Source: Bacteroidota bacterium
Lineage (GTDB): Bacteria > Bacteroidota > Ignavibacteria > Ignavibacteriales > Melioribacteraceae
Direction of reading: 5' to 3'
Length of the DNA stretch: 32,000 nt
Assembly: GCA_023447335.1 (NCBI GenBank)
Contig: JAEXOD010000241.1
Location: 6,157 to 38,156, forward strand
Shown here: positions 3,502-32,000 of the stretch, piece by piece
Position numbering within the stretch: position 1 is the first letter of the stretch
How the letters are laid out: every line of letters begins with the position of its first letter
Notes under the pieces: generated by a model
What the model saw: the letters and a program-made list of their open reading frames with translations, nothing else
Databases searched by the model: none
Told to the model about the DNA's origin: nothing
Translations under genes and position numbers: made by a program

Positions 3502-4332
3502 ATGAAAAGCTTAGACATTAATTATAAGGTAAACCCTAATCAAACATTAGAAAAGCTGCTAAAAATTTCCGATACATTAAGGGATGAAATCCACCGCAAA
3601 AAGCCTATTGAAGGTGATCTTTGGGAAACGATAGAAGAAAAACTATTAATTGAATGGACTTATAATTCGAATGCGATTGAAGGTAGTACTTTAACTCAGG
3701 GAGAAACGATGTTTTTCTTAAAGAATGGACTGACTGTAGAAGGGAAACCCTTTAAGGATTTTTTGGACGCAAAAAATCATGCTGAAGCCATCGAATTTCT
3801 TTATGATGTTGTTAAAAACAATAGAAAAATTTCGACTTCGCTAATAAAGGAATTCAATTCGTTTTTGCTATCAGGAATAAGATCAACTCCGGCTATAGAC
3901 AGGGATGGCAATAGAATAGAAAAAAAAGCCACACCCGGAGAGTATAAAAAGCATCCCAACCATGTTTTACAAAATGACGGCACAATTCATAAATATGTTG
4001 AACCGATTCAAGTTGCTTCTGAGATGGAAAAACTTTGTGATTGGATTAATGACCACTTCGAGAAAACGCATCCGATAATAATTGCAGCTGTTGCACATTA
4101 TAATATGGTTCGAATACATCCGTTCGATGATGGGAATGGACGGGGAGCCAGAATACTGATGAATCTAATATTAATTGCCAAAGGATTTCCGCCTGCGATA
4201 ATCAAAAACGAGAATCGAAGGAAATATTTAGAAACACTTATGGAAGCAGACAAAGGGGATCTGAATAGATTTACTGAATTTATAGCAGAATCTTGTATTG
4301 AAACTCAGAAGTCTGTTTTGGATAATTTATAA
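3502..4332 (+). CDS. Fic family protein (AMPylase-type), class II with intramolecular inhibitory helix
   Basis: Canonical Fic motif HPFDDGNGRGARIL. N-terminal SNAIEG matches the (S/T)xxxE(G/N) inhibitory motif. Confidence 0.9.
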   Translation: MKSLDINYKVNPNQTLEKLLKISDTLRDEIHRKKPIEGDLWETIEEKLLIEWTYNSNAIEGSTLTQGETMFFLKNGLTVEGKPFKDFLDAKNHAEAIEFLYDVVKNNRKISTSLIKEFNSFLLSGIRSTPAIDRDGNRIEKKATPGEYKKHPNHVLQNDGTIHKYVEPIQVASEMEKLCDWINDHFEKTHPIIIAAVAHYNMVRIHPFDDGNGRGARILMNLILIAKGFPPAIIKNENRRKYLETLMEADKGDLNRFTEFIAESCIETQKSVLDNL

Positions 4333-4814: not shown

Positions 4815-5729
4815 TTATTTAATGTTTAGAACACTCTCTAATTTAATAAGTGCTTCGGTATGTTTTTTCTGCTCCATTTTCTTTAAATTCAAAAGTTTCC
4901 ATTTAACGGCCGGCAAGTATTGGATATCGGGAAGACCCAATAGTTGCCAGTTGGGGTTAGTTGATTTGAAAGACAATAAAAACTGTTTTTCGGAATCATT
5001 AAGTGATTTGGTTATTTCGTTTACAAGAAGTTCTCGTGTGCTAATCAACTCATTCAAATCAACTTTCTCGTTAACCATTCCAATAAATTCTTGTTCATAG
5101 GTCTTAGAAATATCTAAAAAATTTGGATTTAATAACTCGCTTATTGGGCGATTGTGACTGATAAGATAGACCAAGAATGCCTTTCTTGTCATATCGGTAA
5201 TGCCTTCATTTTCAAAAAGCAGTTTGATGTCATAAATATCTCTAGGGTGTTGCCGGTCTAAGGCTGCACATATTTTCCCGGCATAAAGCTCTTCTTTAAT
5301 TAGAGACTTTGTTTTAAGTGTTATCTCAAAAAGTTCTTTGGCTTTATTACATAAATAATATTCGGTTGTAGGATAAACCGTTCCCCTAATTGTTAGGTTG
5401 GGTTCAATTTTTACAGTTGCAGTTTCCCCCGTTATTATCAAACCTATGGTATATATATCTAATAATTTCCTTTGTATTTTAGTATTCGGAATAAATTTTA
5501 GTATGTTCGATTCAATTCGCAATAATGATTTTGAGATATCGTCTAAAGATTTAGCCCTATCATTATGCGGAATATAAACTAAATCAATATCAACGGAAAA
5601 ACGTGGCAAGTCTCTTACGAAACAGTTGATAGCGGTTCCGCCTTTTAGGGCAAATATATTTTCTCGGTTAACTATTGGAAGAATCTTTAACAACAAAACA
5701 GATTGTTTAAAATATTTATTGTTATTCAT
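4815..5729 (-). CDS. abiEii: AbiEii/AbiGii-family nucleotidyltransferase toxin (DUF1814), type IV TA
   Basis: N-terminal NTase signature GGTAINCFVRDLPRFSVDIDLVY. 8-nt overlap with the upstream AbiEi-like gene. Confidence 0.85.
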   Translation of the reverse strand: MNNNKYFKQSVLLLKILPIVNRENIFALKGGTAINCFVRDLPRFSVDIDLVYIPHNDRAKSLDDISKSLLRIESNILKFIPNTKIQRKLLDIYTIGLIITGETATVKIEPNLTIRGTVYPTTEYYLCNKAKELFEITLKTKSLIKEELYAGKICAALDRQHPRDIYDIKLLFENEGITDMTRKAFLVYLISHNRPISELLNPNFLDISKTYEQEFIGMVNEKVDLNELISTRELLVNEITKSLNDSEKQFLLSFKSTNPNWQLLGLPDIQYLPAVKWKLLNLKKMEQKKHTEALIKLESVLNIK

Positions 5730-6474
5730 ATTCTTTCGGTACGGTTATGTTATATCTTTTATTTAACTTGCCGTTTTTTGCTATTTCTCTTTTCCCGTTG
5801 CCTATATTAATTTTTGTGTGATTTAATTCGTTAAACCAATTATGCTCATGTTTCTCGGCAAAATATAAAAACAATCTTTTGGTTTTAATTGAATTACAAT
5901 TCTCTAAAAGATATTGTAGCAAATCATCTCTAAGCGTTGAAAGTGATTCCATTATTAAATTGGCACTATCGAAAGAATGAGTTTGAGGAACCAAATATAA
6001 CATTTCCATAATTGCCAATTCGGGAGACGATATTTTTAAGGGTATATTATTATCGGTTACGGTTGAAAAAACGATAGGGTTTTCATAGGTAAAAACATCC
6101 GTTCCAAAAAGCTTTAAATATTGCATCCATGTCTGTTTGGTAAACCATTGAGGGAGTTTATCCATAGAATAGCCGAATAACTCTATTTTATTTTGTTGTT
6201 GTGGTATAAAATGGGCAAAACCCTTCAGCTCTAATGCGGCTTTAGATCCTACGTGAATATGGTTACCGGACTGTTGTTGCAAACAATAAAGTCCTCCCTG
6301 CCATTCGGTTGTATCTCCCGATAGTTTATACGCTCCTCTGGATAAAAGGGTTATCCAACCGGAGTTGGCGTAAACATTTAATATCTGAGAACTATATCCC
6401 AATTTGTTAAGTTCTCGGGTGGTTTTTACCGTTCCTTTTGGCCAATCCAATATCAGTTGGTTTATTTTAGTCAT
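5722..6474 (-). CDS. abiEi: AbiEi-family antitoxin / transcriptional regulator, type IV TA
   Basis: N-terminal wHTH-like TTRELNKLGYSSQILNVYANSGWITLLSRGAYKL. Lies directly upstream of, and overlaps, the AbiEii gene. Confidence 0.75.
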   Translation of the reverse strand: MTKINQLILDWPKGTVKTTRELNKLGYSSQILNVYANSGWITLLSRGAYKLSGDTTEWQGGLYCLQQQSGNHIHVGSKAALELKGFAHFIPQQQNKIELFGYSMDKLPQWFTKQTWMQYLKLFGTDVFTYENPIVFSTVTDNNIPLKISSPELAIMEMLYLVPQTHSFDSANLIMESLSTLRDDLLQYLLENCNSIKTKRLFLYFAEKHEHNWFNELNHTKINIGNGKREIAKNGKLNKRYNITVPKEYE

Positions 6475-6919: not shown

Positions 6920-7981
6920 ATGCAAAATATTAATGATTTACCTCAACAATTTACCTTGTCTAACAATGAGCTGATAAAAGTAAGCTCTCCGGATCAATCC
7001 TTGAAGGCTTGGCTGGAAGCTTATTTTAAAGTGGAAGTTTCTTCGGCGCAATCTTCCCGAAGAGAAGCCTTTAGAGATATAAGCTATTTTATTAACTACC
7101 TCATTAAGGAAACCGGAACAGACGACCCGAAGTTTTGGACACCCAGGCTTTCGGCAGATTTCAAAACGGCTATCCGCAATACCTTAAACGAAAAAGGGAA
7201 TCGCCGATGGAATGACCGAAGTATTAACAGAATGCTCGCTCATCTTAAAACCTTTGCAAAGTGGATAAATAAGCTCAAGCCGTTTGCTTTGGGAAATCCG
7301 ATGGAAAAGATTAAAACAATTGGTACGGCATCATTATTAAATATAGATAGAGCGATTACAAAACAAGAGCGGAGGCAGTTGCTTGATGCGGCAGACCAAC
7401 TTATAAAATCCGGAGGAATATCTAAAGATAGGAATCGATATAAAAATGTTGAGAATCGACCCATTCGGAAAGGATACCGACCATATCGAAACCGAGCGAT
7501 TGTTTATCTGCTTATAGAAACCGGAATGCGTAGAGCCGCCGTTACAAAATTAAATATTGATTCGATTGATTTTAAAAAGAAAATTGTAACCGCAGATGAA
7601 AAGGGGGGCGTGGCTCATGCTTACTCAGTTAGCAAGGAAGGCTTGCAGGCTGTTTCCGATTATATTAATTTGGAGAGGAATATAGACGCCGTTTTATATA
7701 ACTCAAATGCGTTGTTCTTGCCATCCCACTCGTCACAGAATAGAACAGGAAGATTACACCCAAACGCAATCAACGAAATATGGGAGCAAATCTGCAAATC
7801 TGCAAATGTTGAGAACAAAACTCCGCACTCTGCCCGACATGCAATGGGCAGGCACATTATCGAGAAAACAGGGAATATCGCCGCCGTTCAGCGACAATTG
7901 GGACACAAAAACCCGACATACTCAATGCAGTACTCGAGAGTAACGGCAGAGGAACTCGACAAAGTATTAAATGATCGTTAA
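6920..7981 (+). CDS. tyrosine-type site-specific recombinase / integrase
   Basis: Catalytic blocks ETGMRRAAV (Arg), HSARHAMG (HxxR) and LGHKNPTYSMQYSR (His and Tyr nucleophile). Confidence 0.9.
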   Translation: MQNINDLPQQFTLSNNELIKVSSPDQSLKAWLEAYFKVEVSSAQSSRREAFRDISYFINYLIKETGTDDPKFWTPRLSADFKTAIRNTLNEKGNRRWNDRSINRMLAHLKTFAKWINKLKPFALGNPMEKIKTIGTASLLNIDRAITKQERRQLLDAADQLIKSGGISKDRNRYKNVENRPIRKGYRPYRNRAIVYLLIETGMRRAAVTKLNIDSIDFKKKIVTADEKGGVAHAYSVSKEGLQAVSDYINLERNIDAVLYNSNALFLPSHSSQNRTGRLHPNAINEIWEQICKSANVENKTPHSARHAMGRHIIEKTGNIAAVQRQLGHKNPTYSMQYSRVTAEELDKVLNDR

Positions 7982-10044: not shown

Positions 10045-10520
10045 TTTGTTTTACCATCATCGGTGCTACCAATCACGAAGATGGAATAGATAAAGCGGCG
10101 AGGCGAGCCGGTAGATTTGATAAGATTATAGCTTTTAATGATCTTGATGCTGAAGCTTTGGCTACCGGGCTTAGAATTCATTTGAGTAAGAGGGATTTGG
10201 ATGAGAATCAGTTACTTGGTATTGATTGGGGGGCTGTTGAAAGGGCATTCCGCGGCAAAAATCTTACAGGAAGTGATATGCCCGAAATAATATCAAGAGC
10301 TTTATCTAAAAAAGTAAATGAACATCTTCAAATATTAAATAAGGAAGCCGGCTGGTATTCATTGGATTATGGACAGCAAGCTTTACTATATAATGATGTT
10401 AGGTTTATGCCTAAAGGCTTATGTACGGAAGATATTGAGAATGCAATATTGCTTTATAAAAGAGGTAGTATTACTGAAAATAAGAAAATAAATAAAATGG
10501 GATTCACAAATGAATTATGA
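10020..10520 (+). pseudogene. 5'-truncated classical AAA+ ATPase (C-terminal half only)
   Basis: The frame is open from 10020 (TAA at 10017-10019) and reads ..VCFTIIGATNHEDGIDKAARRAGRFDKIIAFNDLDAEAL... GATN is sensor-1 and RRAGRFD is the Arg-finger / second region of homology. No Walker A or B motif is encoded upstream. The first start in frame is TTG at 10158. Confidence 0.7.
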
Positions 10521-11446
10521 TAAATTAAAAGAATTTAGATTTTGGGATACGATTGATGGCGAGATCACAAAATCAAGATATGAAGGAACCCGGCGCGATT
10601 CGCTTTATCCTTCGGAAGCTTCTGCCGTTTCTATAGATCCTAAAACAGGTAGAGCCAAGATATATGGCGGGTGCTTAAGGTCTTCTTGGTATAGGTTAAT
10701 GAAGGTAGAGAAATCAGATCCGCCGCAAGCAAAATCTATGTATGTTTTTGAATTTGGAAGGTATATAGAGAATATGATTACCGACTTCTGTAAGAAGGCG
10801 GGAATATATAATAATAGCTCGGTTAAATTTTGGGACAAGGTTTCCTCCGTTTCAGGCGAAATAGATATCGTGCTGGATCTACCTAGTCGTGACGGAATTA
10901 TACATGTTGAATGTAAATCAACGTATGCCGGTGTAAGTGGTTCTGAATATAATGGTTATAATGGATTGTTTGATCATTATAAGGGGAGGGGACAGTATAG
11001 AAAGCTAGTTAAGGGAAAGCCAAAGGAAGCAAATTTGCTTCAACTAGCGATTTATTTATATACACATATGGATGACGAAAATTTAGTCGGCGGCAAACTT
11101 ATTTACTTATTACGAGATAATTTTATGCGTACTGAATTTGATGTAATAGTAAAACAAGAAGCCGATGGTAGGCATCATATCTATGTTAACGGAGAACGTG
11201 AAGAACGTTTCTGCGTTGAAAGCATCTATGAAAGGTTTGCTACTTTAAGAAATAAGGTCGTTAGCGACCTTAAGGAATTACAGTCCGGCAAACCATTTTC
11301 AGAATTAATACCTATTGAAAAGGATTTTGATCTGGTTTACACAGATGAAAAAGCCAAAGAGCTTTACGAAGAGGGTGAACTTAGTAAAACAAAATACGAG
11401 AAGCATATCAATAGGGAAGATTATGCGGGCGACTGGAATTGCAGCT
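10510..11446 (+). CDS. Cas4-like PD-(D/E)XK nuclease, exon 1 (unspliced ORF in the track ends at 11466)
   Basis: PD-(D/E)XK core GEIDIVLD ... HVECKS and QLAIYLY (QxxxY). N-terminal cluster Cys in GGCLRSSWY. The unspliced frame ends ..DWNCSYRTMAG*. 11-nt overlap with the AAA+ fragment. Confidence 0.8.
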
Positions 11447-11707
11447 ATAGAACAATGGCTGGGTAATATGTAAGTATTACTAAAGAATCGAGCAAAAACG
11501 GTGAAAGCTGAAATGCCAATACCGTGCTAACTCATTAGATTACGTAAAGGCTAATGAGTAGTGTAGAGCATAGCGGGTGAATAAATATAATTCCGCCACG
11601 AGTGTTCGATGCCCTAACGTTAAAACGCGGGTAAAAATATATGCCGACCTATATCGAATATAAAGATATAGAGCTACCGGATAAAAAGCCGGTAGGGTAA
11701 CATAGTG
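11447..11707 (+). ncRNA. group I intron, ORF-less (261 nt)
   Basis: P1: exon CAGCU (11442-11446) pairs with GGCUG (11457-11461) with a terminal U.G wobble. P10: ACAAU (11452-11456) pairs with exon-2 AUUGU (11708-11712). The 3'-terminal nucleotide is G (11707). There are seven further hairpins. AAAGAUAUAG (11662-11671) resembles the conserved J8/7-S element. Splicing restores frame and the CX2CX5C motif. Confidence 0.7.
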
Positions 11708-11784
11708 ATTGTGATTACAAACGATACTGCCAGTACGACCAGCTACAAATGTGGGAGTCTATTAAAAACAGGAGAGCCGCATGA
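11708..11784 (+). CDS. Cas4-like PD-(D/E)XK nuclease, exon 2
   Basis: Reads (Y)CDYKRYCQYDQLQMWESIKNRRAA*. Joined to exon 1 this gives C-SY-C-DYKRY-C. Total length is 937+77 nt = 338 codons including the stop. Confidence 0.65.
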
Positions 11785-11909
11785 CAATAAAAAATAAAAT
11801 CGCCGAAATAATTGCGACAATATTCAATCGGGCAATCTGCCTGTTGAATCAAATTAGGGATCATATTCTGGGAGCAATGGATTGCTTAGGATATAGATCA
11901 GTAATATAA
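11781..11909 (+). CDS. hypothetical 42-aa ORF, ATGA-coupled to exon 2
   Basis: MTIKNKIAEIIATIFNRAICLLNQIRDHILGAMDCLGYRSVI*. The start overlaps the exon-2 stop (ATGA at 11781-11784). Below the track size cut-off. Confidence 0.3.
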   Translation: MTIKNKIAEIIATIFNRAICLLNQIRDHILGAMDCLGYRSVI

Positions 11910-11958
11910 CAATAAAAATTAAATCAAAAACTAACAACTTTTATAAGGAATATAAAAC

Positions 11959-12231
11959 ATGGCAACATACGATAATTACTTCAGTTACTTTACAAAATAC
12001 TCTGCAGAAATGTTTCAGATCTTAGCAGCTAGCGAACTTACGGATTCGGATCACGTTAAATATGTACGTAAATACAAAGGAAAAGAGCATATAATCAATG
12101 CAAATTTGATAAATGAACTAATTACAAAATATTTTAGAACTCAGGATCGGAGCTATCTAATTGAAGCCTCCATTTTGATAATGGGGTTGGATATGCTGCA
12201 TCATAACAGATGTTTCGGAGACAGGAATTAA
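11959..12231 (+). CDS. hypothetical protein (90 aa)
   Basis: ORF only; no motif recognised. Confidence 0.35.
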   Translation: MATYDNYFSYFTKYSAEMFQILAASELTDSDHVKYVRKYKGKEHIINANLINELITKYFRTQDRSYLIEASILIMGLDMLHHNRCFGDRN

Positions 12232-12315: not shown

Positions 12316-12912
12316 TCATAGTAAAATTACCCTGATTATTGGCGCTATTGTTTTTAGTGATCCACAAATTTTAGCGTATTCAAGAAGCTTCGGTATATTA
12401 CATGATTTTTTGTCTTTCAGGTAATTCTTAAGCGATTCTATGGCAACATCGTCACCAATTTTATTTTTATACCTAAATAGATCGCCGATGGTCTTCTCTT
12501 TATTATATATCCTGAATTCACCGTTAATAGCTTTTACTGTCTCTATTGCCGGCTCGTAGTATTTGTTAATAAAATAATAAACATGGATAGGAGGATACTC
12601 AAGCTTAAATATATTAGCATTATTTGGAACGGCAACATCGTTAACTGCCGGATTATACGTTGTAAGCTCGTAATAAGAAGCGGCCGATAGCAAACAGATA
12701 ACGGCTTTTTTATTAGCCATACAAATATCCACAAAGCTACTGTTTTCATCTTCAGGATAGTCCTTTAGCTTATAAAGACCTCGCTTGGTTCTTTCGATTA
12801 TACCATCCTTAATGGCTTTGTTAAGCGAACGCATACCGATCCGGTACTTCATTAGATGCTTTGTTGTTAGACGTCCGTTATATTTTTCAAATATGTTTAT
12901 AATTGTATTCAT
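12316..12912 (-). CDS. AbiEi-like antitoxin / wHTH regulator (orphan, no intact toxin partner)
   Basis: N-terminal NGRLTTKHLMKYRIGMRSLNKAIKDGIIERTKRGLYKL and central AVICLLSAASYYELTTYNP..VAVP resemble the AbiEi family. Confidence 0.7.
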   Translation of the reverse strand: MNTIINIFEKYNGRLTTKHLMKYRIGMRSLNKAIKDGIIERTKRGLYKLKDYPEDENSSFVDICMANKKAVICLLSAASYYELTTYNPAVNDVAVPNNANIFKLEYPPIHVYYFINKYYEPAIETVKAINGEFRIYNKEKTIGDLFRYKNKIGDDVAIESLKNYLKDKKSCNIPKLLEYAKICGSLKTIAPIIRVILL

Positions 12913-18136: not shown

Positions 18137-20146
18137 TTACCCTTTCCAAATATATATAATCTCACAGGCTTTGCATTTGCGCTTTTCTTGCCATAACCCC
18201 GCAATATTAAATCTACCTTCGGGTTTTAAGTATATATCTAATCCTCTGCCAAGTATTATTTTCCAACCGTTATTCATGTCGATATATCTATCATGTATGT
18301 TGGGGTTAAATTCCCACGTTAAATTAATGCCTGAATCAAATACCGTTTGCGAGATCTCTTCAAGAGTGTCGTTTGAGCTTTTTATCATCTCGTCCGGTTC
18401 GTTCCAGGTTATTACTTTTAAGTTAAGCTCTTCTTCTTCTTTCTTGTTTTTTGCTATCATTAAACAAAATTCCAGTAAATAATTCAGTTGATACGGATAT
18501 CGTAAATAAGGATCGACTAACGTGATTTCCGTACTTCCTTGAATATAATCTGCAAATAAGTTTTCGTATGAAATACCTTCTTGATTATCTATTATAGAAA
18601 TATGCTTGGGCTTTAGCGTTTTGTTAACTTCCTTTTCGGTAAAAATAATCTCTTTGTTATTGTTGCCGTCTAATAACTCATCTTCGTCGATTATTTTATA
18701 TTGTTTGTTTTCCAGAGTCTCTATTTTAACAAACTTGTTGTTGTACTTATCTAAATATCCAAAATTAACTTTTTCAAAAGTATCATCGATAATTAGTAAT
18801 TGATCTTTTACTCTTTTACGCCCTTCAATCGCAAAGTTAATTAATTCAATCGCTTCTTCATATTTTAATTTACCCGAAGGGTATATTATTTTTACCAGTC
18901 CGGAAAATGTTTTTAATATTCCGTCTCTATCCCTTGTAGTAATCGAACTATCCAATTCAACAAATTCATTTAGCAATTGAGCATAATCGTCTTTTCGTAA
19001 TTCTTTTAATATTTCGGCAAGGTAATCAACAATAAAACCGTAACCCGAAGTAAACATTTCACCGCGTAATTTATCAACTTCCCAGCCCGGTACATACGTG
19101 TGTATTCTATCTAAAAACGCACTGTCAATATATGTTTTTGGCAATGAAATAAATAGATGTGCATTCTTTATCATGAAAGCAACGGAGTGCTCCGTATTAC
19201 CGACAAATACAAACGAGCCTGTAGCTCCCATTACATCAGTACCGCGCGAAAATGTCTTATTTGCCATGTAATTTTTCATTATATCAACTAACTTTCTATC
19301 AACCGTCTTATTGCTTCCGGCAAATTCGTCAAAGGTTATTACATCCCAAAAACCGACAAGCCCTATTTGACCCGTAGTATTGTTAACAAATAGTTTAGGA
19401 GCCGTAACTTCGCCTCCCGATATTAATATACCGTGCGGAGATAATTCGGAAAATATATGCGATTTACCCGTTCCCTTTGGTCCAAGTTCAATATAATTAT
19501 AATTATTTTCACAAAAAGGGATTAATCGACTTAATTGAATTAGCTTGCTTCTAAAAGTAAATCGGCTTGGTACAAAACCGATGCTTTGAATAAGCAAATC
19601 TATCCATTCATCTTTTGTAAATTCTTCTCGTAATGCAATATATTCTTCTAAATCGACTTTCGATATCTGTATGGGCTTTAACTCAACAATTAACCAAGGA
19701 ACACTTTCCTCATCGGGATTATGGAAATACTCTAATGTAATTATTGACCAAACACCTCCGGCAAGAATTTTTTTGTGTTGTTTAATCAATTGAGGGCTAA
19801 TTATTATTCGTTTTATACCTAAATTGCTAAACGATGCCTCGTAAACGTCTTTTTTTTCGTTTAGTACCGCCGAAACTTTATCTATTACTTTGAATTTCCC
19901 TTTTTCGCGGATAATAGATTTTATAAATTCCGCTTCGTCCCTATTAACAAAATGATCTCGAATTATAGTTTTTACTTTATCTAACCCTTGATTTATTATT
20001 TCTTCATCCGAAGAAGCACAATGCTGTCCCAATAAATACTCTAAAACATAACTCGGTACAACCGCATTCCCTTTTATTATCTTTGCCAAGTCTTTTCTTA
20101 CTACTTTGCCTTCAAAATATTTATTAATTTTGTCCTGCAACTCCAT
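18137..20146 (-). CDS. brxL: BREX protein BrxL (Lon-like protease / AAA-type ATPase)
   Basis: 669 aa with P-loop GPKGTGKSH. Terminal position in the operon, with a 1-nt overlap with pglZ. Confidence 0.88.
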   Translation of the reverse strand: MELQDKINKYFEGKVVRKDLAKIIKGNAVVPSYVLEYLLGQHCASSDEEIINQGLDKVKTIIRDHFVNRDEAEFIKSIIREKGKFKVIDKVSAVLNEKKDVYEASFSNLGIKRIIISPQLIKQHKKILAGGVWSIITLEYFHNPDEESVPWLIVELKPIQISKVDLEEYIALREEFTKDEWIDLLIQSIGFVPSRFTFRSKLIQLSRLIPFCENNYNYIELGPKGTGKSHIFSELSPHGILISGGEVTAPKLFVNNTTGQIGLVGFWDVITFDEFAGSNKTVDRKLVDIMKNYMANKTFSRGTDVMGATGSFVFVGNTEHSVAFMIKNAHLFISLPKTYIDSAFLDRIHTYVPGWEVDKLRGEMFTSGYGFIVDYLAEILKELRKDDYAQLLNEFVELDSSITTRDRDGILKTFSGLVKIIYPSGKLKYEEAIELINFAIEGRKRVKDQLLIIDDTFEKVNFGYLDKYNNKFVKIETLENKQYKIIDEDELLDGNNNKEIIFTEKEVNKTLKPKHISIIDNQEGISYENLFADYIQGSTEITLVDPYLRYPYQLNYLLEFCLMIAKNKKEEEELNLKVITWNEPDEMIKSSNDTLEEISQTVFDSGINLTWEFNPNIHDRYIDMNNGWKIILGRGLDIYLKPEGRFNIAGLWQEKRKCKACEIIYIWKG

Positions 20147-22746
20147 TAAAACTCCGGTTCAATTAATGTTTGATTAATTACCGTTAATTTTATTAAAGGA
20201 TTAATTTTACTTAAATCCTTTGTGTGATTATATAAAATTAAATATAATTGGTTGTTTTTATTGATACCGTACTGCAAATTTAAAATGATTTCTTTCGTTC
20301 TCTCGGTTGGGTTCTCCGAAACGGAATCCAGCATAATAACCTGCTCGTTTGATACAAGTTTTCCGAATTCATCATAAATACCCGCACTTATTTCTATTTC
20401 TCTATATCCTTCATCTATAGCTCTTTCTTGTAATATAGTTACTTTTAATGAGCTTGATACTATTGTAAGTTTTTGATTAATTATCTTAAAAGGAACAACT
20501 TCGGTTACTTCCTCTCTTTTTTTAATACTTTCTATTATCGGAATTATTAACTCTTGAACCGATGCCCCACCATGTACAAATAGCGCTCCGTGTCCTTGTC
20601 TTTTATATCGGTTAATAGCTTTTGGTATTGTTATATAATTATTCGTTTTAATATTAGAGCACTTGGACATTTCAAAAATATAACTTTCGGTATCAACTCT
20701 TTTTGAAAATACCGAATACCTATTATGGTTTACCAATGCTTCGCTATCCGGCAACTTTTCATACATCGCTTCGGGTAAATCGCTATGATTATATAAAAAC
20801 CCATGGTCTGCAGTAACTATTATGCGTGCAACATTATAAGAAGAATGTATTTTTTTAATTAGTATTGTTAAATCTTTAATTGTTTTTCTAACGGCATCAA
20901 CCGTCTGTTTTTCGGTGTTTCTGTCATCCCCTATTGCATCTATATGGTTATGATAAATATAAACTACCTTGTTTTTAAATAGCTCTCTCGCTTCCTCTCT
21001 GCCAAGACTATTTACATAATCATAAGTAACGGCTTTGCTTTCGGTATTTCTTTTTTTTAGAATTTTATCCCTGTTCTCTACTCCCTCGGTTGATATTCCG
21101 TCAATAATAAATGTTTCATTATTAAAGTCTATCTCCCTATACGGAAGTAAATTTGCCATCCCTTGTTTTGTGTTTGAAGGAATAGATGCCAAAGCATGTT
21201 TTATTTCGAGCATAAACTTAGGGTCTTTTTTTAACTCTTCGGCAAGATCCGCCGCACACTCATATCTAAAAGCATCCGAAATTATAACTGCTACTTTATT
21301 ATCGCTTTTTTCTATAAATTTGTTATAAAATTCGTATTGTTTTGTTACCTGTATATTATTAAATTCAAAGTTAAAGTCTTTTATGCATTTTATCCAGCCT
21401 TTATTATAATCAATTAAGAACTTAACATAACCGTTTTGCATTTTCCCAATTAAAAGATCGGAATCAAAGTTATCTTTAATTGTTTCATATACAGGGAAAT
21501 CGGCTGATATTTCCAATGCTTTTCTAAAATAGGTATCTACTAAATAAAATGTTTCGGTATATTTTGCAATATATTCTTCCGGATTATTATAAATATACCC
21601 GCCGGAAGAGCTTAATATGTTATTAATATTTGCATAATAAATTAAAAATTTAACAAAATAACCTAACTCGCTTTTACTTTCAATTGATTCGGAAAGTATA
21701 TTGTTTAATGATTTTATTACTCCGCTCGGGTTAAGTTCAATGCCCTTAATTACAATTTTTATAATGTTTATAACAAAATTATTACCGTAATAACCATATA
21801 TTTGGTCAACACCGTAAGTTTCCAAAATTTTTACTTCGTCTATATCGCTTGCCAAATTATCCCAAACCAAATCAAGTTGTTTTGAAAGGGTTATATGCTT
21901 ACGCCAATCGTTAAATAATGTTGTTATTCCGTTTAAGTATCTACTATCGGTTATATTATGTATAAAGTATCTATCAAGGGTATCTTTGTAGGCAAGTTCT
22001 TTTTTTGATTTTTGAGCTGTTTTTATTTCTTTTGTTATGTTTTTTGTAAGTATGTTATACTTTATTTGAACAGCCAACGACTTAAAAAGCTGAGGCGATA
22101 AGGCTATTTCATCATATTTATTATCTTCCCTTAATCCAAAATAAGTATTAATTATACTTGATACCAAAGATTCGGCATCTATTTCTTTTATCTTTTCAAT
22201 TACTTTTTCGGCATTGTTTTCCAAAAGAGTTGTTATTAACCTTATAATTAATAAAGTATCGTCTTCGGTTTCGTGTGCATTCAAAAAACAGAATACCAAT
22301 CCTTTTTTTAAGCTCGTTTCGTTAAAATTAATATCGTTTAATATTCTTGCCAAAACAGTCTTGTGTTTTTTAATCTTCAAGTATTTAATATACTTTTTTA
22401 TTAAAGGTCTATTTATATCGCTTAAATTAAATTCCTTAATTATGTCTTCCGCTTCGTCCAAATACAATGTTTTGTTTGCAACCAATATATCCAGTAAAAC
22501 AAATCGCTTTCTGTCTTCTCCTTTTGGTTCGCCGGTATTAAAATATAAAAACACTTTTTCGTTTTTTAGAGCAGCCTCTAAATTATATTTTAAGGTAAAC
22601 AAATTATTTCCGGCAATTACTAATTTAATTTCGCCGGCATTAAAGTTTTCTATTTCGTTAAGATGCTCTTTTTCGGCATCAAAAAAGAAGAGTACTTTTA
22701 ACTTTGGAAACCTTTTAAAGTATTCGATAACTTTTTGGTCTAACAT
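20146..22746 (-). CDS. pglZ: BREX alkaline-phosphatase-fold protein PglZ
   Basis: 866 aa with the PglZ core IIVTADHGFLY. Sits between the pglX side and brxL. Confidence 0.9.
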   Translation of the reverse strand: MLDQKVIEYFKRFPKLKVLFFFDAEKEHLNEIENFNAGEIKLVIAGNNLFTLKYNLEAALKNEKVFLYFNTGEPKGEDRKRFVLLDILVANKTLYLDEAEDIIKEFNLSDINRPLIKKYIKYLKIKKHKTVLARILNDINFNETSLKKGLVFCFLNAHETEDDTLLIIRLITTLLENNAEKVIEKIKEIDAESLVSSIINTYFGLREDNKYDEIALSPQLFKSLAVQIKYNILTKNITKEIKTAQKSKKELAYKDTLDRYFIHNITDSRYLNGITTLFNDWRKHITLSKQLDLVWDNLASDIDEVKILETYGVDQIYGYYGNNFVINIIKIVIKGIELNPSGVIKSLNNILSESIESKSELGYFVKFLIYYANINNILSSSGGYIYNNPEEYIAKYTETFYLVDTYFRKALEISADFPVYETIKDNFDSDLLIGKMQNGYVKFLIDYNKGWIKCIKDFNFEFNNIQVTKQYEFYNKFIEKSDNKVAVIISDAFRYECAADLAEELKKDPKFMLEIKHALASIPSNTKQGMANLLPYREIDFNNETFIIDGISTEGVENRDKILKKRNTESKAVTYDYVNSLGREEARELFKNKVVYIYHNHIDAIGDDRNTEKQTVDAVRKTIKDLTILIKKIHSSYNVARIIVTADHGFLYNHSDLPEAMYEKLPDSEALVNHNRYSVFSKRVDTESYIFEMSKCSNIKTNNYITIPKAINRYKRQGHGALFVHGGASVQELIIPIIESIKKREEVTEVVPFKIINQKLTIVSSSLKVTILQERAIDEGYREIEISAGIYDEFGKLVSNEQVIMLDSVSENPTERTKEIILNLQYGINKNNQLYLILYNHTKDLSKINPLIKLTVINQTLIEPEF

Positions 22747-22763
22747 AATTTTATTTTCGCCAA

Positions 22764-22841
22764 TTATTTAAGTTTAGTTAAAATATCATTAAATCGTGCA
22801 TAATTTGTGGTTACCCTGTCATCCAAATCAAAATCTATTTG
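22764..22841 (-). pseudogene. relic of a pglX 3' end (last 25 codons plus stop) 17 nt upstream of pglZ
   Basis: Translates QIDFDLDDRVTTNYARFNDILTKLK*, against the live PglX C-terminus QIDFDLDDGVTANYQKFEGIVVPIK*. A 21-nt exact match GTCATCCAAATCAAAATCTAT occurs at 22818-22838 and 24661-24681. Confidence 0.7.
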
Positions 22842-22864
22842 ATAAATTATATAATGCCAAATAC

Positions 22865-24595
22865 TTAGTTATTATCCTCTATTAATTCAATGTCGTATTT
22901 TTCTTTTAAGAAATTAAGCATAAGTTCTCGTCTTTTTTCAATAAACAATTTAGGATTACTCCAAACTTCATTTTCAAAATCAATTTTTCCATTATTTTTC
23001 GGGAAAAGGAAATCATAGTTATCAATATATTTACTTCCAAAAATCTCCTCTCCTGCTTTCAGTTTGTAATCATCGGTAAAAAATAACTTGGGGTGAATAT
23101 TTGATTTATAAATATTTACATCACCGGGTGCAGGCTGCATATTCCAAATTATATCAACCATTTTCCTATAGTTTTCATCTTGTCCTTTTAATCGCTGTGG
23201 ATATATGTGATCTATCTCTGGGTTAAAGCGTCCCTTGATTGTCGGATCAAACAGATATTCTCTGTTGGGAGTTAAAACTTTTAACGCAAACCATCTATAA
23301 TCAATGAAATTCTTCTCTGAAATTTCAAGGAAGCGTTTTTTATCAATACTGACATAAGATTCTATCAAATCCGATGGAAAATCAAACATTCCTTTTATTA
23401 GATCTGCTTGCTCAATAATTATTTTAGTAAAATTATCAATATAGCTTTGTAAATTCCAATCATTAATTTGTGACTTAATTAAAAATCGACTTATTTTTTT
23501 TATGCTTATCGGTGCAATATCCTTATACTTAAATCCTATTTTATAAAGTTTATAAAAATATACCATAATCGGCAACAAAGCATTACTCCTTGGAATAATA
23601 GATGAATTGTTTATCTTAAATCCATTATAAAGATAATCTCTGAAGAAAGATAATAAGGGTTCTTCCAATTCCTTCCATGTATCTACAAATGTTTTTCTAT
23701 CAGATTTAACAACTTTTTTATGATCTAATCTACTTGTTCCTTTTACAATCAGGTTTAATAATTGCAAAATGCTGTATGCATTAAAAGAATATCCATTGTG
23801 GGTTAATTTGTATATTTTTTTTGAACTTTTTTGAAGATCTTCTTCAAAATTTGCAAATTCTTTTTTTATTTCTGTGAAGACAAGGTCTGCTAATGTTAAT
23901 GACATGCCTCCTGTATTTAATCTTTCAAATACATCATTTACAATCGTTTCTTCTTGAACTTTTAATGGATAAAATGATAATGATTTCTTATCAGTATCCA
24001 CAAAAATAGACCATAATAAATCAATTTTTTGCTCTATTATTTCCGCTTGTAATGCTGAAATACTTTCAGTCTTTTGAATTATTTTTCTTCTAAATTGAAA
24101 TTTTTCACCAGTATTCTTAGAAAATATTTCATTCATTCTTACAAAATTCCAACCAATTTCAGAGTTCTTTTCTACAAACGAGAAACCTGTTTTATCTCTG
24201 TCATTATCATCAGTATCATTAGATATCAGGTCGTAAATCAGAATTTTATCGTTAAATGTAAATTGAAGGCAGCTATATAATGTTTGTAATCTTTGCTGTC
24301 CATCATAAATCAACCCCTTTCCGCTTTTCCCATGTTGTCCTTTATCGACTAATTCCGGAAAATTGTCAGGACAATAATCACCGATGAATCTTCTATATGG
24401 TATTTCTTGATCGGTTTCCCAAACAATTAATCCTCCGATAGGATATCCTTTCAAAATAGAATCAAACAATTTACATATATATCTCTCACTTTCATATCTG
24501 CTTCCCCAAACATAGGGTCTTTGTACTGCAGGTAAAAACCAGTCTTTATTGATTTTTAAGATGGCTTCTTTCACGGAAATAGGTAAATACGACAT
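22865..24595 (-). CDS. DUF262/DUF1524 GmrSD-family type IV restriction enzyme (BrxU-like), embedded in the BREX operon
   Basis: N-terminal DUF262 blocks LPAVQRPYVWG and DGQQRLQTL. C-terminal DUF1524 His-Me-finger-like blocks EIDHIYPQ and WNMQPAPGDVNIYKSN. Confidence 0.85.
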   Translation of the reverse strand: MSYLPISVKEAILKINKDWFLPAVQRPYVWGSRYESERYICKLFDSILKGYPIGGLIVWETDQEIPYRRFIGDYCPDNFPELVDKGQHGKSGKGLIYDGQQRLQTLYSCLQFTFNDKILIYDLISNDTDDNDRDKTGFSFVEKNSEIGWNFVRMNEIFSKNTGEKFQFRRKIIQKTESISALQAEIIEQKIDLLWSIFVDTDKKSLSFYPLKVQEETIVNDVFERLNTGGMSLTLADLVFTEIKKEFANFEEDLQKSSKKIYKLTHNGYSFNAYSILQLLNLIVKGTSRLDHKKVVKSDRKTFVDTWKELEEPLLSFFRDYLYNGFKINNSSIIPRSNALLPIMVYFYKLYKIGFKYKDIAPISIKKISRFLIKSQINDWNLQSYIDNFTKIIIEQADLIKGMFDFPSDLIESYVSIDKKRFLEISEKNFIDYRWFALKVLTPNREYLFDPTIKGRFNPEIDHIYPQRLKGQDENYRKMVDIIWNMQPAPGDVNIYKSNIHPKLFFTDDYKLKAGEEIFGSKYIDNYDFLFPKNNGKIDFENEVWSNPKLFIEKRRELMLNFLKEKYDIELIEDNN

Positions 24596-24606
24596 TTTTC
24601 CTCCGT

Positions 24607-27600
24607 TTATTTTATTGGAACGACTATTCCTTCAAATTTTTGGTAATTAGCGGTTACTCCGTCATCCAAATCAAAATCTATCTGCTTATCTGCTTTATCT
24701 TTTACAAGCATATCGTAATCTTTGCATTCCAATTCTTCATTGCGTAATTTATCCAAAAGTTTATCTTCGGCAGGAGTTCTTGTCTTTTTGCTTAACTGCT
24801 CAATATTGTTGCGTAAAAAACTTAAATGCCTTAATAAATAGTTGTTCCGTATTTTTTGTATAGTGTATTTATTCATTCTATGCATATATACCAACACTTT
24901 AAACGAACCGTTTGAAGATGCAAATACCCAATAAATAGGCTTTTTTTGATACATTTTATAGTGGTATTGCCAAAACTTTTCGGTTAAAAATTTATCCATA
25001 TCCATACCCAAACATTCGTTTATAAAATTAATGTTTTCGGTTATGGTATCTTGCCCAAACGAGGCTTCCAAAAAATTACGCATTCTAACGGTAATATCAT
25101 CACTAAAATTATACCCCGAACCCATTAAAGGGACTATTCCGTCTTCATCGGGCATAAAATGATTTGGGTCTTTTTCGGTTTTTTCATATACTGTTTTGTT
25201 ATATTCTTCAAGCGTATCGCCGCTATTGGCAAGTATAAGCCCCTCTTTATATAAGCTGTACCTTCCCATCATACACCCAATTGCATAACTTAAAAATTGT
25301 TTAATAATTTCGTCTTTCTTAAAAACAAGCTCGTTGTTTTCGTTTATATAATTTATGTCTTGTAATATCGTAATTTCTTTTAACGGCACTTCTGGGGTTA
25401 ACTCGTCCTGTAAACCGTATATTTCTATAAATATTCTGTTTAGTTCTTCTTCGTTTTTGTGTAATTCAAAAAATAGTTTTTTCATCTCTTCAATAAAAAC
25501 AAAATATGCAGCTTTTAGTAAGTTACTATCCTTAAGTAATAATATCTCATTTATCCGATAATCAACACTATATTCATTAATATCCCAGGATTTTTTTGCA
25601 CATTTAATATTTGCAAAAACTAATTCCTCGATGATATTTTTATATGATAATTCAACAGAAAATGGCAGTTTTAATATATCACCAACCGTAGTGTTCACCG
25701 TTGTGTTAAAACATTTTAATAGTTCCGTAACATATTTTGAATTTAGAAATGCTAGAGCTGTGTAAATATTTTTTTGTTCTTCTATTGTAATTATAGTAGG
25801 TGCTGCCGACGAAAATATTTTTCCTTTATCTTTTAATCGAAAATAAGTATTCCCAGACGACACCAAATTCCATACAATTCCTAAAACATCCCAAAATTTA
25901 TTGTTTAGCAACCCACCATGTAGGGCATAATAGCCACGTGCTTCGTTCGTCCAATTTACTATAAATAAACTATTACCATACCATTTTAAACTTGCCCCCC
26001 CATTTTCATAAAATATCCAATTATTATTAAATCCTATATCTTTCAAATTGCATTCCCAAAAATATCTCACAAATTTATTATTGTTATGTGTTTTGTTTCG
26101 ACCACCAGAAAAGAAAAAATCATTTATGGTCTTTTTATTATCGTATGGTGATAAAAATTTCTCACTTACCCAATAAGCAATCGGTGAACCGGGGATTTTT
26201 GAGAAGTTGGATTGGAGGATGTTTGCAAACCTACCATTATTCTTAATGGGAAAAATGTAAGGAGTATTTGTTTCGGGATTAATATCTTTAATTTCAAGAT
26301 AAGAATATTCCCCCTTTCGAAAATCATTATTTTTATCCAACACAAGAATAGCAGTACCAAAAGCTATACCTATAATATGCCAACCAAAATGGGTTAAAGA
26401 CACTATATTGTAATTGTCAATTATATGTGTTCGAAGTTTCTCAAAAGAAGTTAAAAACATCCAAGATTCCATCGTTATACAACTCATCCTTGCATTTACT
26501 CTTGTTAACTCAATCATTCTTTCAATAAACACAGAGAATAGATCGCTTTTTGCAATCGGGTAATTTTTATTCACATAAGCTTTTAGCTCCTCGTTCATAT
26601 TCTTTGCCCCCATATAAGGAGGATTTGCAACAACAGACAAGTATTTGTTGTTAAGCATAATTAAAACTTTTATAAAAGGTTTAAGCTCAATCCAAATGCT
26701 TTTTTTATCAACGGGCAAAAGATCTTCGTTAAATTGTTCTTCAAAATAATTATATCGGCTTTTTACCAGCTCAAAAGTATTTTTAGGCAAGTTGGTTTTT
26801 ATAACGGAACCTAAATTTTTTCCTTTGTTAAGTAATGTTAAAGCGTTTGAAATAGATGCTTTATGCTTGTTTAATTCTTCAATGGTTATATCTGTATTGT
26901 CGGGCTTAATAAATGTTTCTATTTCGGAATCGTCAAAATTATAATGCTCGGGGAAAGCTAAAATGTTTGTATCAATAGGGTTTTCAAGCAAACTTTGGTT
27001 ATATTTCCCTGCTTTTAACAATACGGCAAAGTTTGCAAGCTGTGATGCACGATCATCAATATCCAAACCAAACAAATTATTTTTAATAATAGAGGTAACG
27101 GCATTTTTTGCTGTATATCCTTCTTCTACATACATTTTTAACAACAAATCAAAACCTTCAACCAAAATATGTCCGCTTCCGCAAGCAGGATCCATTAATG
27201 TAAGCCGGATAATATCATTAATAAGCGGATCTCTTCTTTCGGTTTCCACATAATATTTTAATTCGCTTTTTAACGTACTTTCAGGTTTGTAATCCAACCA
27301 AACATTCCCTGTACTGTTTTCGGTCATATATTTAACAATCCATTTTGGCGTAAATATTTGAGTTGCTGCAGGAATGTCTTCGGCTCGTGCTTTTATATTT
27401 GACGAAAAGTTTTTAAATATTTGATCTTTTTTATCGGATATATAAAACTGATAAAGCCAACCGATTAATTCAACCTCTTTATAATCTTCATCACTTATGG
27501 CATCGTTTGTATTTATTAAATTAATTATACCGTTTGAAGAAAGTAAATTATCGGGTAATAAAAGCTCGGTATAATCGTTAATATGACCAAATATTTTATT

Positions 27601-28095
27601 GGTTAATTTATGGTTTTTGCAAAAATTTAATACAAGCAAAGCAAAAGCGGATTCTTCGTTATTATCCGCCAAATAACGGTTAAACAAATTGTCTAGCCTA
27701 TTATTGTTAAAGTTTTCTTGCTTTAATCTTGCGTTATGTAGTAATGCGGGTTCATCCAATTCGGAAGAAACATATCCCAAAACCGGATTAATGTAATTGT
27801 TTTTTTCAAGTATTTTTAATGAAATAAATCTGTTAAACCATGTAAAGGCGGCTTGCTCAATAATATCCTCAACCGTATGCAATTTAAGAGCTTTTTTAAG
27901 AGCATCATATTTTTTTGGTACGGAAGCATCGTCAAAAACTTTATCTCTAAAAGTATATCCGCCCGAAATTGCTTCCAAAGTAAAACTTGTATCTCCGTTT
28001 TTACCAAAGCCCCAGTAGTTCATTCTTTGATTAACACCGTTCAATAAAATTATACGAGCATTTTTTGCAAACGATTTAAGTTTATTGGTATTCAT
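24607..28095 (-). CDS. pglX: BREX N6-adenine DNA methyltransferase PglX
   Basis: 1162 aa. SAM motif I LMDPACGSGHIL and motif IV VVANPPYMG (NPPY). Confidence 0.92.
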   Translation of the reverse strand: MNTNKLKSFAKNARIILLNGVNQRMNYWGFGKNGDTSFTLEAISGGYTFRDKVFDDASVPKKYDALKKALKLHTVEDIIEQAAFTWFNRFISLKILEKNNYINPVLGYVSSELDEPALLHNARLKQENFNNNRLDNLFNRYLADNNEESAFALLVLNFCKNHKLTNKIFGHINDYTELLLPDNLLSSNGIINLINTNDAISDEDYKEVELIGWLYQFYISDKKDQIFKNFSSNIKARAEDIPAATQIFTPKWIVKYMTENSTGNVWLDYKPESTLKSELKYYVETERRDPLINDIIRLTLMDPACGSGHILVEGFDLLLKMYVEEGYTAKNAVTSIIKNNLFGLDIDDRASQLANFAVLLKAGKYNQSLLENPIDTNILAFPEHYNFDDSEIETFIKPDNTDITIEELNKHKASISNALTLLNKGKNLGSVIKTNLPKNTFELVKSRYNYFEEQFNEDLLPVDKKSIWIELKPFIKVLIMLNNKYLSVVANPPYMGAKNMNEELKAYVNKNYPIAKSDLFSVFIERMIELTRVNARMSCITMESWMFLTSFEKLRTHIIDNYNIVSLTHFGWHIIGIAFGTAILVLDKNNDFRKGEYSYLEIKDINPETNTPYIFPIKNNGRFANILQSNFSKIPGSPIAYWVSEKFLSPYDNKKTINDFFFSGGRNKTHNNNKFVRYFWECNLKDIGFNNNWIFYENGGASLKWYGNSLFIVNWTNEARGYYALHGGLLNNKFWDVLGIVWNLVSSGNTYFRLKDKGKIFSSAAPTIITIEEQKNIYTALAFLNSKYVTELLKCFNTTVNTTVGDILKLPFSVELSYKNIIEELVFANIKCAKKSWDINEYSVDYRINEILLLKDSNLLKAAYFVFIEEMKKLFFELHKNEEELNRIFIEIYGLQDELTPEVPLKEITILQDINYINENNELVFKKDEIIKQFLSYAIGCMMGRYSLYKEGLILANSGDTLEEYNKTVYEKTEKDPNHFMPDEDGIVPLMGSGYNFSDDITVRMRNFLEASFGQDTITENINFINECLGMDMDKFLTEKFWQYHYKMYQKKPIYWVFASSNGSFKVLVYMHRMNKYTIQKIRNNYLLRHLSFLRNNIEQLSKKTRTPAEDKLLDKLRNEELECKDYDMLVKDKADKQIDFDLDDGVTANYQKFEGIVVPIK

Positions 28096-28123
28096 ATATA
28101 ATGCCTAACCCTTACGCTATAAG

Positions 28124-31597: not shown

Positions 31598-31605
31598 AAA
31601 AGCTC

Positions 31606-32000
31606 TCAATTATTATTTAATAAAATTGCCCGATAAAAATCTTCGTTATTTAATTCGTTAAAAAGATAATAATGATTATTTTCAAATTTCCCGGGGTAAA
31701 AAGAAATAATTTTATAGTTACCGGCATTAATATATTTTTCGTAAAGTTTAACAAATTCGCTTAAACGCAAAAACGGAAAAATTGAACCAAAACCGTGAAT
31801 AAAAATATATACCTTTTTATACTCGTTTTGTAAGTTAAAACTATTCATTATTTTTTTATTTAAGAAATCAAAGAAATCAGATCCGAATGCACAATCCCGA
31901 GTCGGTTCATAAATAGAATCCGTGCCTTCAATTTTTTCCTGTTCAATAAGTAAATCAAATAAACTGTCATTACCCAAAAATCGAGACTTCAGAAAGTCAA
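31606..32000 (-). CDS. brxB: BREX protein BrxB (DUF1788-like), 3' part; frame stays open to the right window edge
   Basis: Lies immediately upstream of brxC. ..VYIFIHGFGSIFPFLRLSEFVKLY.. is DUF1788-like. The codons upstream of the track Met (..DFLKSRF) contain no stop, so the true start is outside the window. Confidence 0.7.
   Translation of the reverse strand, partial: DFLKSRFLGNDSLFDLLIEQEKIEGTDSIYEPTRDCAFGSDFFDFLNKKIMNSFNLQNEYKKVYIFIHGFGSIFPFLRLSEFVKLYEKYINAGNYKIISFYPGKFENNHYYLFNELNNEDFYRAILLNNN

Follow-up and report, generated by a model that had tools for sequence, protein, structure and literature searches.

Group I introns in the DNA-metabolism and structural genes of phages are a classical observation (PMC3984707), and introns of the IA2 and IA3 types have been described in the DNA polymerase, TerL, ThyA and RNR genes of the Bastillevirinae (PMC11878797). 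Large crAss-like phages have a very high density of introns, and crAss-like phages are reported to be rich in group I introns and PDDEXK nucleases (PMC7886860). Here we describe an element of this kind in a 32,000-nucleotide (nt) stretch of contig JAEXOD010000241.1 (positions 6,157 to 38,156, forward strand; assembly GCA_023447335.1) from a Bacteroidota bacterium of the Melioribacteraceae; the whole stretch is called the window, and its own numbering is used throughout. Positions 11447-11707 (+) are very probably a compact (261 nt) group I intron without an open reading frame (ORF), subgroup-IA-like in its set of helices (P1, P2, P3-P9, P7.1 and P9.1), in a phage-derived gene for a Cas4-like PD-(D/E)XK nuclease. 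With the subgroup IA introns of phages (T4 td, nrdB and nrdD, Twort, SPO1, Bastillevirinae) it shares P1-P10, the P3/P7 pseudoknot, the U.G pair at the 5' splice site and the terminal G, as well as an extra hairpin between P7 and the 3' strand of P3 (P7.1, and in relatives of the window intron also P7.2). Like other phage group I introns it interrupts a gene of phage DNA metabolism at a functional motif that is highly conserved, is present in some and absent from other close alleles, and has LAGLIDADG variants. It differs from the known phage introns in that P7.2 is cut down to a 14-nt loop, UGAAUAAAUAUAAU, and in its score of 36 bits, which is below the Rfam gathering level. Sequence comparison establishes here the identity, boundaries and structure of the intron, its presence in some alleles and absence from others, and the purifying selection that acts on the spliced frame.

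Exon 1 of the nuclease gene (10510-11446, +; 312 codons plus 1 nt) ends ...UGC AGC U and codes for C55, D119, E134, K136, Q178, Y182 and C311, read from the invariant columns of the homologue alignment; exon 2 (11708-11784, +; 2 nt, 24 codons and the stop) codes for C314, C320 and the conserved ...AA C-terminus. Without splicing, the ORF at 10510-11466 gives 318 amino acids (aa) ending ...GDWNCSYRTMAG (...DWNCSYRTMAG), and the short downstream frame at 11708-11784 reads (Y)CDYKRYCQYDQLQMWESIKNRRAA*. The frame is kept (937+77 nt) when T11446 is joined to A11708, which yields 337 aa ending ...CSYCDYKRYCQYDQLQMWESIKNRRAA*, a conceptual spliced protein that holds C311-SY-C314-DYKRY-C320. The insertion point lies between the first and the second Cys codon of this C-terminal CX2CX5C motif. 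An earlier reading of the DNA from its letters (the original prediction) had given the ORF end, the join, the frame, the CX2CX5C motif and an ATGA overlap with the following ORF, and all of these coordinates check. It had also stated that no homing endonuclease ORF lies inside the intron, and indeed the 261 nt have no internal ORF, with stops throughout all three frames. Its emphasis on a GC content visibly above that of the flanks was wrong: the intron has 0.39, exon 1 0.37 and the whole window 0.31, and the excess over the exons is only marginal.

A protein search with the conceptual spliced product matched 19 relatives, the best of which (P0001; 337 aa, 95% protein identity) has exactly the C-terminus predicted for the spliced product. 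The locus that encodes it, L001, aligns with the window by blastn in two blocks, 10051-11448 against L001 5542-6939 (85%) and 11708-12215 against 6938-7416 (81%). Exactly the 261 intron nt are missing from L001; its junction is TGCAGCT|ATTGTGATTAC, and the intron-less insertion site reads ...TGGAATTGCAGCTATTGTGATTAC... The motif C-x2-C-x5-C is read without a break in 17 of the 19 homologues, which are colinear through CSYCxxxxxC, in favour of the original prediction, and none of the 19 has a natural end at ..CSYR... The two exceptions, P0004 (ending ...CSYTTMAGVI) and P0012 (ending ...CSYVTMAVTV), stop early owing to homologous introns that interrupt this codon in L002 and L003: removal of the 253-nt intron of L002 (4944-5196) restores CSYCPYNKLC...ELAA, and removal of the 1126-nt intron of L003 (1154-2279) restores CSYCGYKTLC...LDAA. 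The same site is occupied in L171 (4561-4821, about 90% identical to the window intron) and in the 177-kb IMG/VR viral contig L308 (3938-4198), which is colinear with L001 across about 7 kb, the 261-nt intron excepted. Five copies at this exact site are known in all (window, L171, L308, L002 and L003).

The window shares 96% identity with L001 in exon 2 but about 87% in exon 1, and L171 (3167-5020), which has the intron, is 98.6% identical to L001, which lacks it, over the 1396 nt up to the insertion site vs 80% beyond. Between intron-plus and intron-minus alleles the identity thus shifts sharply at the insertion site, a mosaic consistent with recombination there, and a breakpoint in this place would fit homing with co-conversion, or recombinational gain or loss.

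The RNA structure was derived from the RF00028 alignment, the minimum free energy (MFE) fold and alignments of relatives, and the core helices were assigned by hand. RF00028 matches 11437-11671 over the full model (1-253) with 36.2 bits and E 1e-7 under permissive filters, and the MFE has a z-score of -5.14, with none of 200 shuffles folding as well. All helices are on the forward strand. P1 (C11442-U11448/A11455-G11461, 7 bp, loop 11449-11454), found in the Rfam alignment and the MFE fold, has the U11446.G11457 wobble at the 5' splice site and is conserved in L171, L308, L002 and L003, with C11445-G changed to U-G in L003. The internal guide sequence ACAAUGGCUG (11452-11461) also pairs through 11452-11456 with the start of exon 2 at 11708-11712 (P10, 5 bp). 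P10 covaries, being ACAAU/AUUGU in the window vs GCAAU/AUUGC in L171 and L308, a change that tracks the synonymous codon of the second Cys (TGC in L171 and L308 vs TGT in the window). The P2 hairpin GUAAUA/UAUUAC (11463-11480), likewise present in the Rfam alignment and the MFE fold, has compensatory replacements in L002 (GUUAUA/UAUAAC) and L003 (GACCGUG/CACGGUC). P3 (5' strand 11488-11494, 3' strand 11603-11609; 7 bp) is 100% paired in 18 sequences, with five pairs changed on both sides. A further P3 pair, A11487-U11610, was considered and dropped, as it is an A-C mismatch in most relatives and 11610 pairs with 11633 in P8. P4 (11498-11503/11520-11525), in which A-U is swapped to U-A at 11498/11525, encloses P5 (11506-11508/11515-11517; 3 bp, GAAA-type loop), where G-C becomes C-G in L003. 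P6 (11526-27/11561-62) and P6a (11530-11538/11551-11559), together spanning 11526-11562, have nine of 11 pairs changed on both sides, and pair 11527/11561 occurs as CG, AU, GC and UA among relatives. P5abc is absent from this architecture.

The 5' strand of P7 (11566-11572: G11566, bulged A11567, G11568-A11572) is aligned to the Rfam P7 consensus and pairs with 11640-11645; P7 is 100% paired and forms the pseudoknot with P3. Its pair 11570/11642 is A-U in 11 and G-C in seven of the 18 sequences, G11568-C11644 and the bulged A11567 are invariant in all 18, and G11568-C11644 would be the guanosine-binding pair. P7.1 (11573-11596; 5 bp, the 14-nt loop given above) lies between P7 and the 3' strand of P3 and has four of five pairs compensatory, and in P8 (11610-11614/11629-11633) all five pairs are changed on both sides. 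J8/7 (11634-11639), which together with the 3' strand of P7 (11640-11645) reads AAAAAUAUAUGCC, is placed by its alignment to the Rfam J8/7 consensus gAAGAUAUAGUC and by covariation. P9 (CUAUAUC/GAUAUAG, 11649-11671) has compensatory changes in five of seven pairs, and P9.1 (CUACCGG/CCGGUAG, 11674-11695, with the conserved loop AUAAAAAG) in six of seven. The terminal guanosine (omega G) at 11707 marks the 3' splice site and is kept as G in all five same-site introns.

The group I intron of the original prediction is borne out by the full-length RF00028 match, even though this is below the gathering score, and by a foldable P3-P9 core with compensatory changes. P1, P10 and G11707 are present, as is every hairpin that had been listed, now recognized as P2, P4, P6a, P7.1, P8, P9 and P9.1. 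P3 and P7, which had been left unassigned, have been placed, and their pseudoknot is backed by covariation. The J8/7 element had been sought in the wrong place: 11662-11671 (AAAGAUAUAG) is the 3' strand of P9 and covaries with 11649-11655.

Covariation was measured in a MAFFT alignment of the intron core from 18 relatives (A3), with pairing partners slid by 1-3 columns and 500 shuffles as controls. In A3, 98.6% of cells are paired (31-40% when slid) and 38 of 57 pairs are changed on both sides (9-16 when slid), and none of the 500 shuffles reaches any of these measures. A covariance model built from A3 (R1) finds a single copy in the window at 228 bits, the second-best score, which is partly so by construction as the window is in the R1 seed, and 92 copies in 69 sources altogether. 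Across the 92 copies, 94.1% of cells are paired vs 37-43% when slid, and 49 of 51 pairs are compensatory; this alignment is fitted to the model and leans towards the structure, a bias that A3, made by MAFFT, does not have. The same measurements bear on another explanation, in which a non-intron insertion of 261 nt, such as a miniature mobile element or a recombination scar, disrupts the gene and resembles a group I intron by coincidence. The Rfam score under the gathering threshold would be in keeping with such an insertion. However, the match to RF00028 is full-length with E 1e-7, the 38 of 57 compensatory pairs fall into a group I topology that includes the P3/P7 pseudoknot, and the guide can pair with the ends of both exons, with which it covaries. 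In addition, there is neither a target-site duplication nor a terminal inverted repeat, the only repeat being the 2-nt AU, and homologues pass the Rfam gathering score, with one same-site variant holding a LAGLIDADG endonuclease. Coincidental resemblance is next to inconceivable, and as far as sequence analysis goes this explanation is already refuted.

For the group I intron at 11447-11707, the standard group I pathway would proceed as follows. The guide 11452-11461 would pair with the end of exon 1 (P1, U11446.G11457), and an exogenous guanosine at the P7 site G11568-C11644 would attack after U11446. The 5' half of the guide would then pair with the start of exon 2 (P10) and G11707 would enter the G site, so that the 3'-OH of exon 1 could attack after G11707, joining ...UGCAGCU to AUUGUGAU... 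The spliced RNA would be 261 nt shorter, with a junction reading ...TGCAGCTATTGTGATTAC..., and only this mRNA would encode the 337-aa enzyme with C55, C311, C314 and C320; the unspliced mRNA would give a 318-aa product ending RTMAG*, without two of the ligands. The window intron is predicted to be catalytic.

The nuclease itself contains the D...ExK and QxxxY catalytic motifs, and its spliced product has four Cys, one N-terminal (C55) and the others (C311, C314, C320) in the C-terminal CX2CX5C, the same set of features as in the 4-Cys nucleases of the Cas4/AddB/EXO5 type. In contrast to these (e.g. SSO0001), the window protein is about 130 residues longer, with insertions. In 20 sequences there is no variation at D119, E134, K136, Q178, Y182 or C311, and C55, C314 and C320 are conserved in at least 90%, C314 and C320 being missing only from the two intron-cut gene calls. 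PHROG 1706 and 1990, which are annotated as Cas4-type, match the nuclease. With an AlphaFold (AF2) model (predicted local distance difference test, pLDDT, 78.7; predicted template modelling score, pTM, 0.74), the top Foldseek match is Cas4 SSO0001 (4IC1, [4Fe-4S]; E 1.2e-4, probability 1.00, target-normalised template modelling score 0.48), and further matches are EXO5, ACE1, MGME1 and type I-C Cas4. A profile search of PDB sequences returned only chance CxxC matches to the zinc ribbon of ribosomal protein L37Ae (E ~0.7) and is uninformative. Fold, motifs and PHROG matches support the name 'Cas4-like' for this predicted enzyme, in agreement with the Cas4-like, 4-Cys nuclease first proposed, and its conserved Cys suggest that it may bind an Fe-S cluster. 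The ORFs scanned included no cas gene, and members of the nuclease family are located in phage replication modules.

Blastn similarity to L001 and L308 is confined to 10051-12215 of the window. This phage-derived patch (+) consists of the 3' part of a truncated AAA ATPase gene (ORF 10158-10520), the nuclease gene with its intron, a 42-aa ORF and a 90-aa ORF (11959-12231). ORF 10158-10520 retains some 155 C-terminal residues of a phage AAA ATPase whose L001 counterpart has 308 aa, and a stop codon stands at the upstream homology breakpoint of this gene, which may still be used. The 42-codon ORF (11781-11909, +) has no family match; homologous ORFs follow the nuclease gene in L001, L002, L003, L171 and L308. 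Its ATG overlaps the nuclease stop (ATGA), which suggests translational coupling. In L001 the start of this ORF is TAATG vs ATGA in the window.

In such a setting the window copy might be a relic, a group I intron by descent that no longer splices, with the nuclease a pseudogene giving only the 318-aa product. It has no homing endonuclease, its gene sits in a 2.2-kb patch behind an N-terminally truncated AAA ATPase with a stop at the breakpoint, and the surroundings of the patch, with genes for integrase, Rep, AbiE and BREX (bacteriophage exclusion), are non-phage. Yet every core helix is intact, the copy is second-best with R1 (partly by construction), and P1, P10, the terminal G, the P7 G-C pair and the bulged A are all present. 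Exon 2, too, keeps its frame, its stop codon and its coupling to the next ORF. The ratio of nonsynonymous to synonymous substitution rates (dN/dS) of the spliced frame between window and L001 is 0.054 over both exons, and the nuclease gene therefore is, or recently was, functional as the spliced product. Moreover, L171 conserves the module of truncated AAA ATPase and nuclease with the same breakpoint (83% identical, dN/dS 0.10), which argues that the module is maintained and not decaying. We consider a relic improbable.

Several points weigh against a splicing group I intron in a Cas4-like nuclease gene. Splicing is a prediction from sequence comparison. A scan of the whole window at the Rfam gathering level returned nothing, the gathering score of RF00028 being 50, and the boundaries obtained by allele comparison alone have a 2-nt (AU) ambiguity that is fixed only by the U.G wobble and terminal-G rules. 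The nuclease does not reach the thresholds of curated hidden Markov models (PF12705, PF01930, TIGR00372), scoring 17.9 bits with Pfam PDDEXK_1 (PF12705; cut-off 22) and 21.7 bits with TIGR00372 cas4 (cut-off 65), and is therefore called 'Cas4-like' only and no Cas4 equivalog. The window copy lies, without a homing endonuclease, in a truncated phage fragment of a bacterial island, and its expression and current mobility are conjectural. Finally, four of eight validated phage introns of the Bastillevirinae were spliced only in infected bacteria and not in vitro (PMC11878797).

This last observation also favours a variant of the explanation, in which the intron splices only with a protein cofactor or under particular cellular or phage conditions, so that production of the nuclease would be conditional. 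The intron is very compact, with a 3-bp P5, without P5abc and with P7.2 lost relative to its relatives. Small IA and IC3 introns are, however, known to self-splice in vitro; nothing in the window data stands directly against the variant, which we regard as a real possibility, though a rather doubtful one.

As regards mobility of the group I intron, the same-site copy of L003 carries a 291-aa LAGLIDADG ORF (1490-2365; PF14528, E 3.4e-10), which is inserted downstream of P9.1. Its frame stays open across the 3' splice site and continues in exon 2, so that it shares its stop codon with the nuclease gene. Since L003 still has this endonuclease, the window copy is most likely the descendant or passenger of a homing-competent intron, and would now spread only by recombination; we infer a history of homing from this comparison.

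A hairpin between P7 and the 3' strand of P3 (P7.1) is a mark of subgroup IA, and by the presence of P7.1 the window intron can be described as subgroup-IA-like. In the relatives found by R1 and not by the P7/P7.1 motif described below, the P7.1 loop is UGAA-[hairpin]-GAAUAUAAU, i.e. P7.1 plus P7.2. The latter is absent in the window and reduced to the 14-nt loop in its subfamily, which probably explains the low Rfam score. In 20 loci (including L171, L002, L003, L308, L290 and L279), the RF00028 gathering score is passed only by P7.2-bearing relatives and by L290 965-1185 (53-94 bits; 81 bits for L290 965-1185), and by none of the copies with the loop of the window type. R1 scores the gathering-passing introns at 55-146 bits (for example, L280 5757-6004 has 146 bits with R1 and 65 with RF00028), and these matches therefore tie the subfamily to bona fide RF00028 members. 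The conserved 23-nt P7/P7.1 motif retrieved >120 viral contigs, >120 metagenome contigs and 64 genome loci, and each of the 288 distinct segments so retrieved shows homology to the window intron. That the P7.1 loop is invariant in these loci is partly ascertainment, the motif being the search pattern; in copies found otherwise the loop varies and the P7.2 insertion occurs. Three to six copies of the intron family are found within a few kb in L278 (7.2 kb), L252, L257 and L265, which are heavily intron-invaded prophage genes.

Unannotated introns with 68-81% DNA identity to the intron core occur in sequenced phages. These are Staphylococcus phage VB-SauS-SA2 and other 6ec-like phages, in which the terminase large subunit is split, the crAss-like phages cr118_1 (helicase split), cr6_1, cr7_1 and cr131_1, Bacillus phage PJN02 and Leptolyngbya phage Lbo-JY46. 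The terminase large subunit of SA2 (L371; MH356730 42831-45673) and the helicase of cr118_1 (L372; MT774379) are each annotated as two coding sequences with an unannotated intron between them. The host gene of the window intron differs from those of these phages, and a tblastn search for the nuclease family in 50,697 GenBank phage records gave no match.

The nuclease family is phage-borne, with 63 viral loci, and the module occurs with and without the intron in viral contigs of 177-181 kb, in keeping with the phage-derived gene block of the original prediction. In L001, L002 and L308 it belongs to a replication module with primase, AAA ATPase, nuclease, deoxynucleoside monophosphate (dNMP) kinase and RPA genes; L171, like the window, has Phage_CRI-type Rep and AbiE genes nearby. 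The remaining window is a defence island that contains Fic, AbiEii/AbiEi, an integrase, a Schlafen/AlbA protein, a primase-like protein, Rep and BREX-1. Among its genes, 3502-4332 codes for a Fic/DOC protein and 4815-6474 (-) for an AbiEii/AbiEi toxin-antitoxin pair. A second AbiEi-like gene stands alone at 12316-12912 (-); in L171 its homologue precedes a 301-aa AbiEii-like ORF, which the window lacks. The BREX type 1 system (18137-31977, -) is complete, with BrxL, PglZ, PglX, BrxC and BrxB, and a GmrSD-type restriction gene (22865-24595) is inserted between PglZ and PglX.

These comparisons support the view that the nuclease gene is phage-derived; it now resides in a non-phage element next to BREX. 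A search for the donor lineage via the AAA ATPase gave only generic ~30% matches to jumbo Pseudomonas phages, and genome size and intron density (PMC7886860) hint at a possible crAss-like donor (Zeta group). It is conceivable, if unlikely, that the integrase- and Rep-bearing island next to BREX took up the nuclease module (truncated AAA ATPase, nuclease and two small ORFs) from a large phage and keeps it under purifying selection, and that the intron could tie production of the active Fe-S nuclease to a condition such as infection-dependent splicing. If true, this would mean an intron-gated defence, satellite or anti-phage function and no passive passenger.

The window intron belongs to a well-known class of mobile elements, of which it is a fairly ordinary representative at a site that is new. 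A literature search of limited reach found neither an intron in a Cas4-type nuclease gene nor an insertion site inside CX2CX5C, which is weak evidence of novelty. With the Cys-ligand codons of a Cas4-like nuclease, a new host gene and insertion site join the targets of phage group I introns, in line with the general preference of such introns for the most conserved functional motifs. The corrected gene model gives a predicted product of 337 aa in place of the 318-aa truncated nuclease without two Fe-S ligands that gene callers produce, and the database entries P0004 and P0012 share the same gene-call truncation error. The analysis exposes a large phage and prophage intron subfamily that lies mostly below the Rfam gathering threshold and splits unannotated genes in Staphylococcus and crAss-like phages. 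The near-isogenic intron-plus and intron-minus pairs, together with the LAGLIDADG variant, make this family a good natural system for homing and endonuclease loss.

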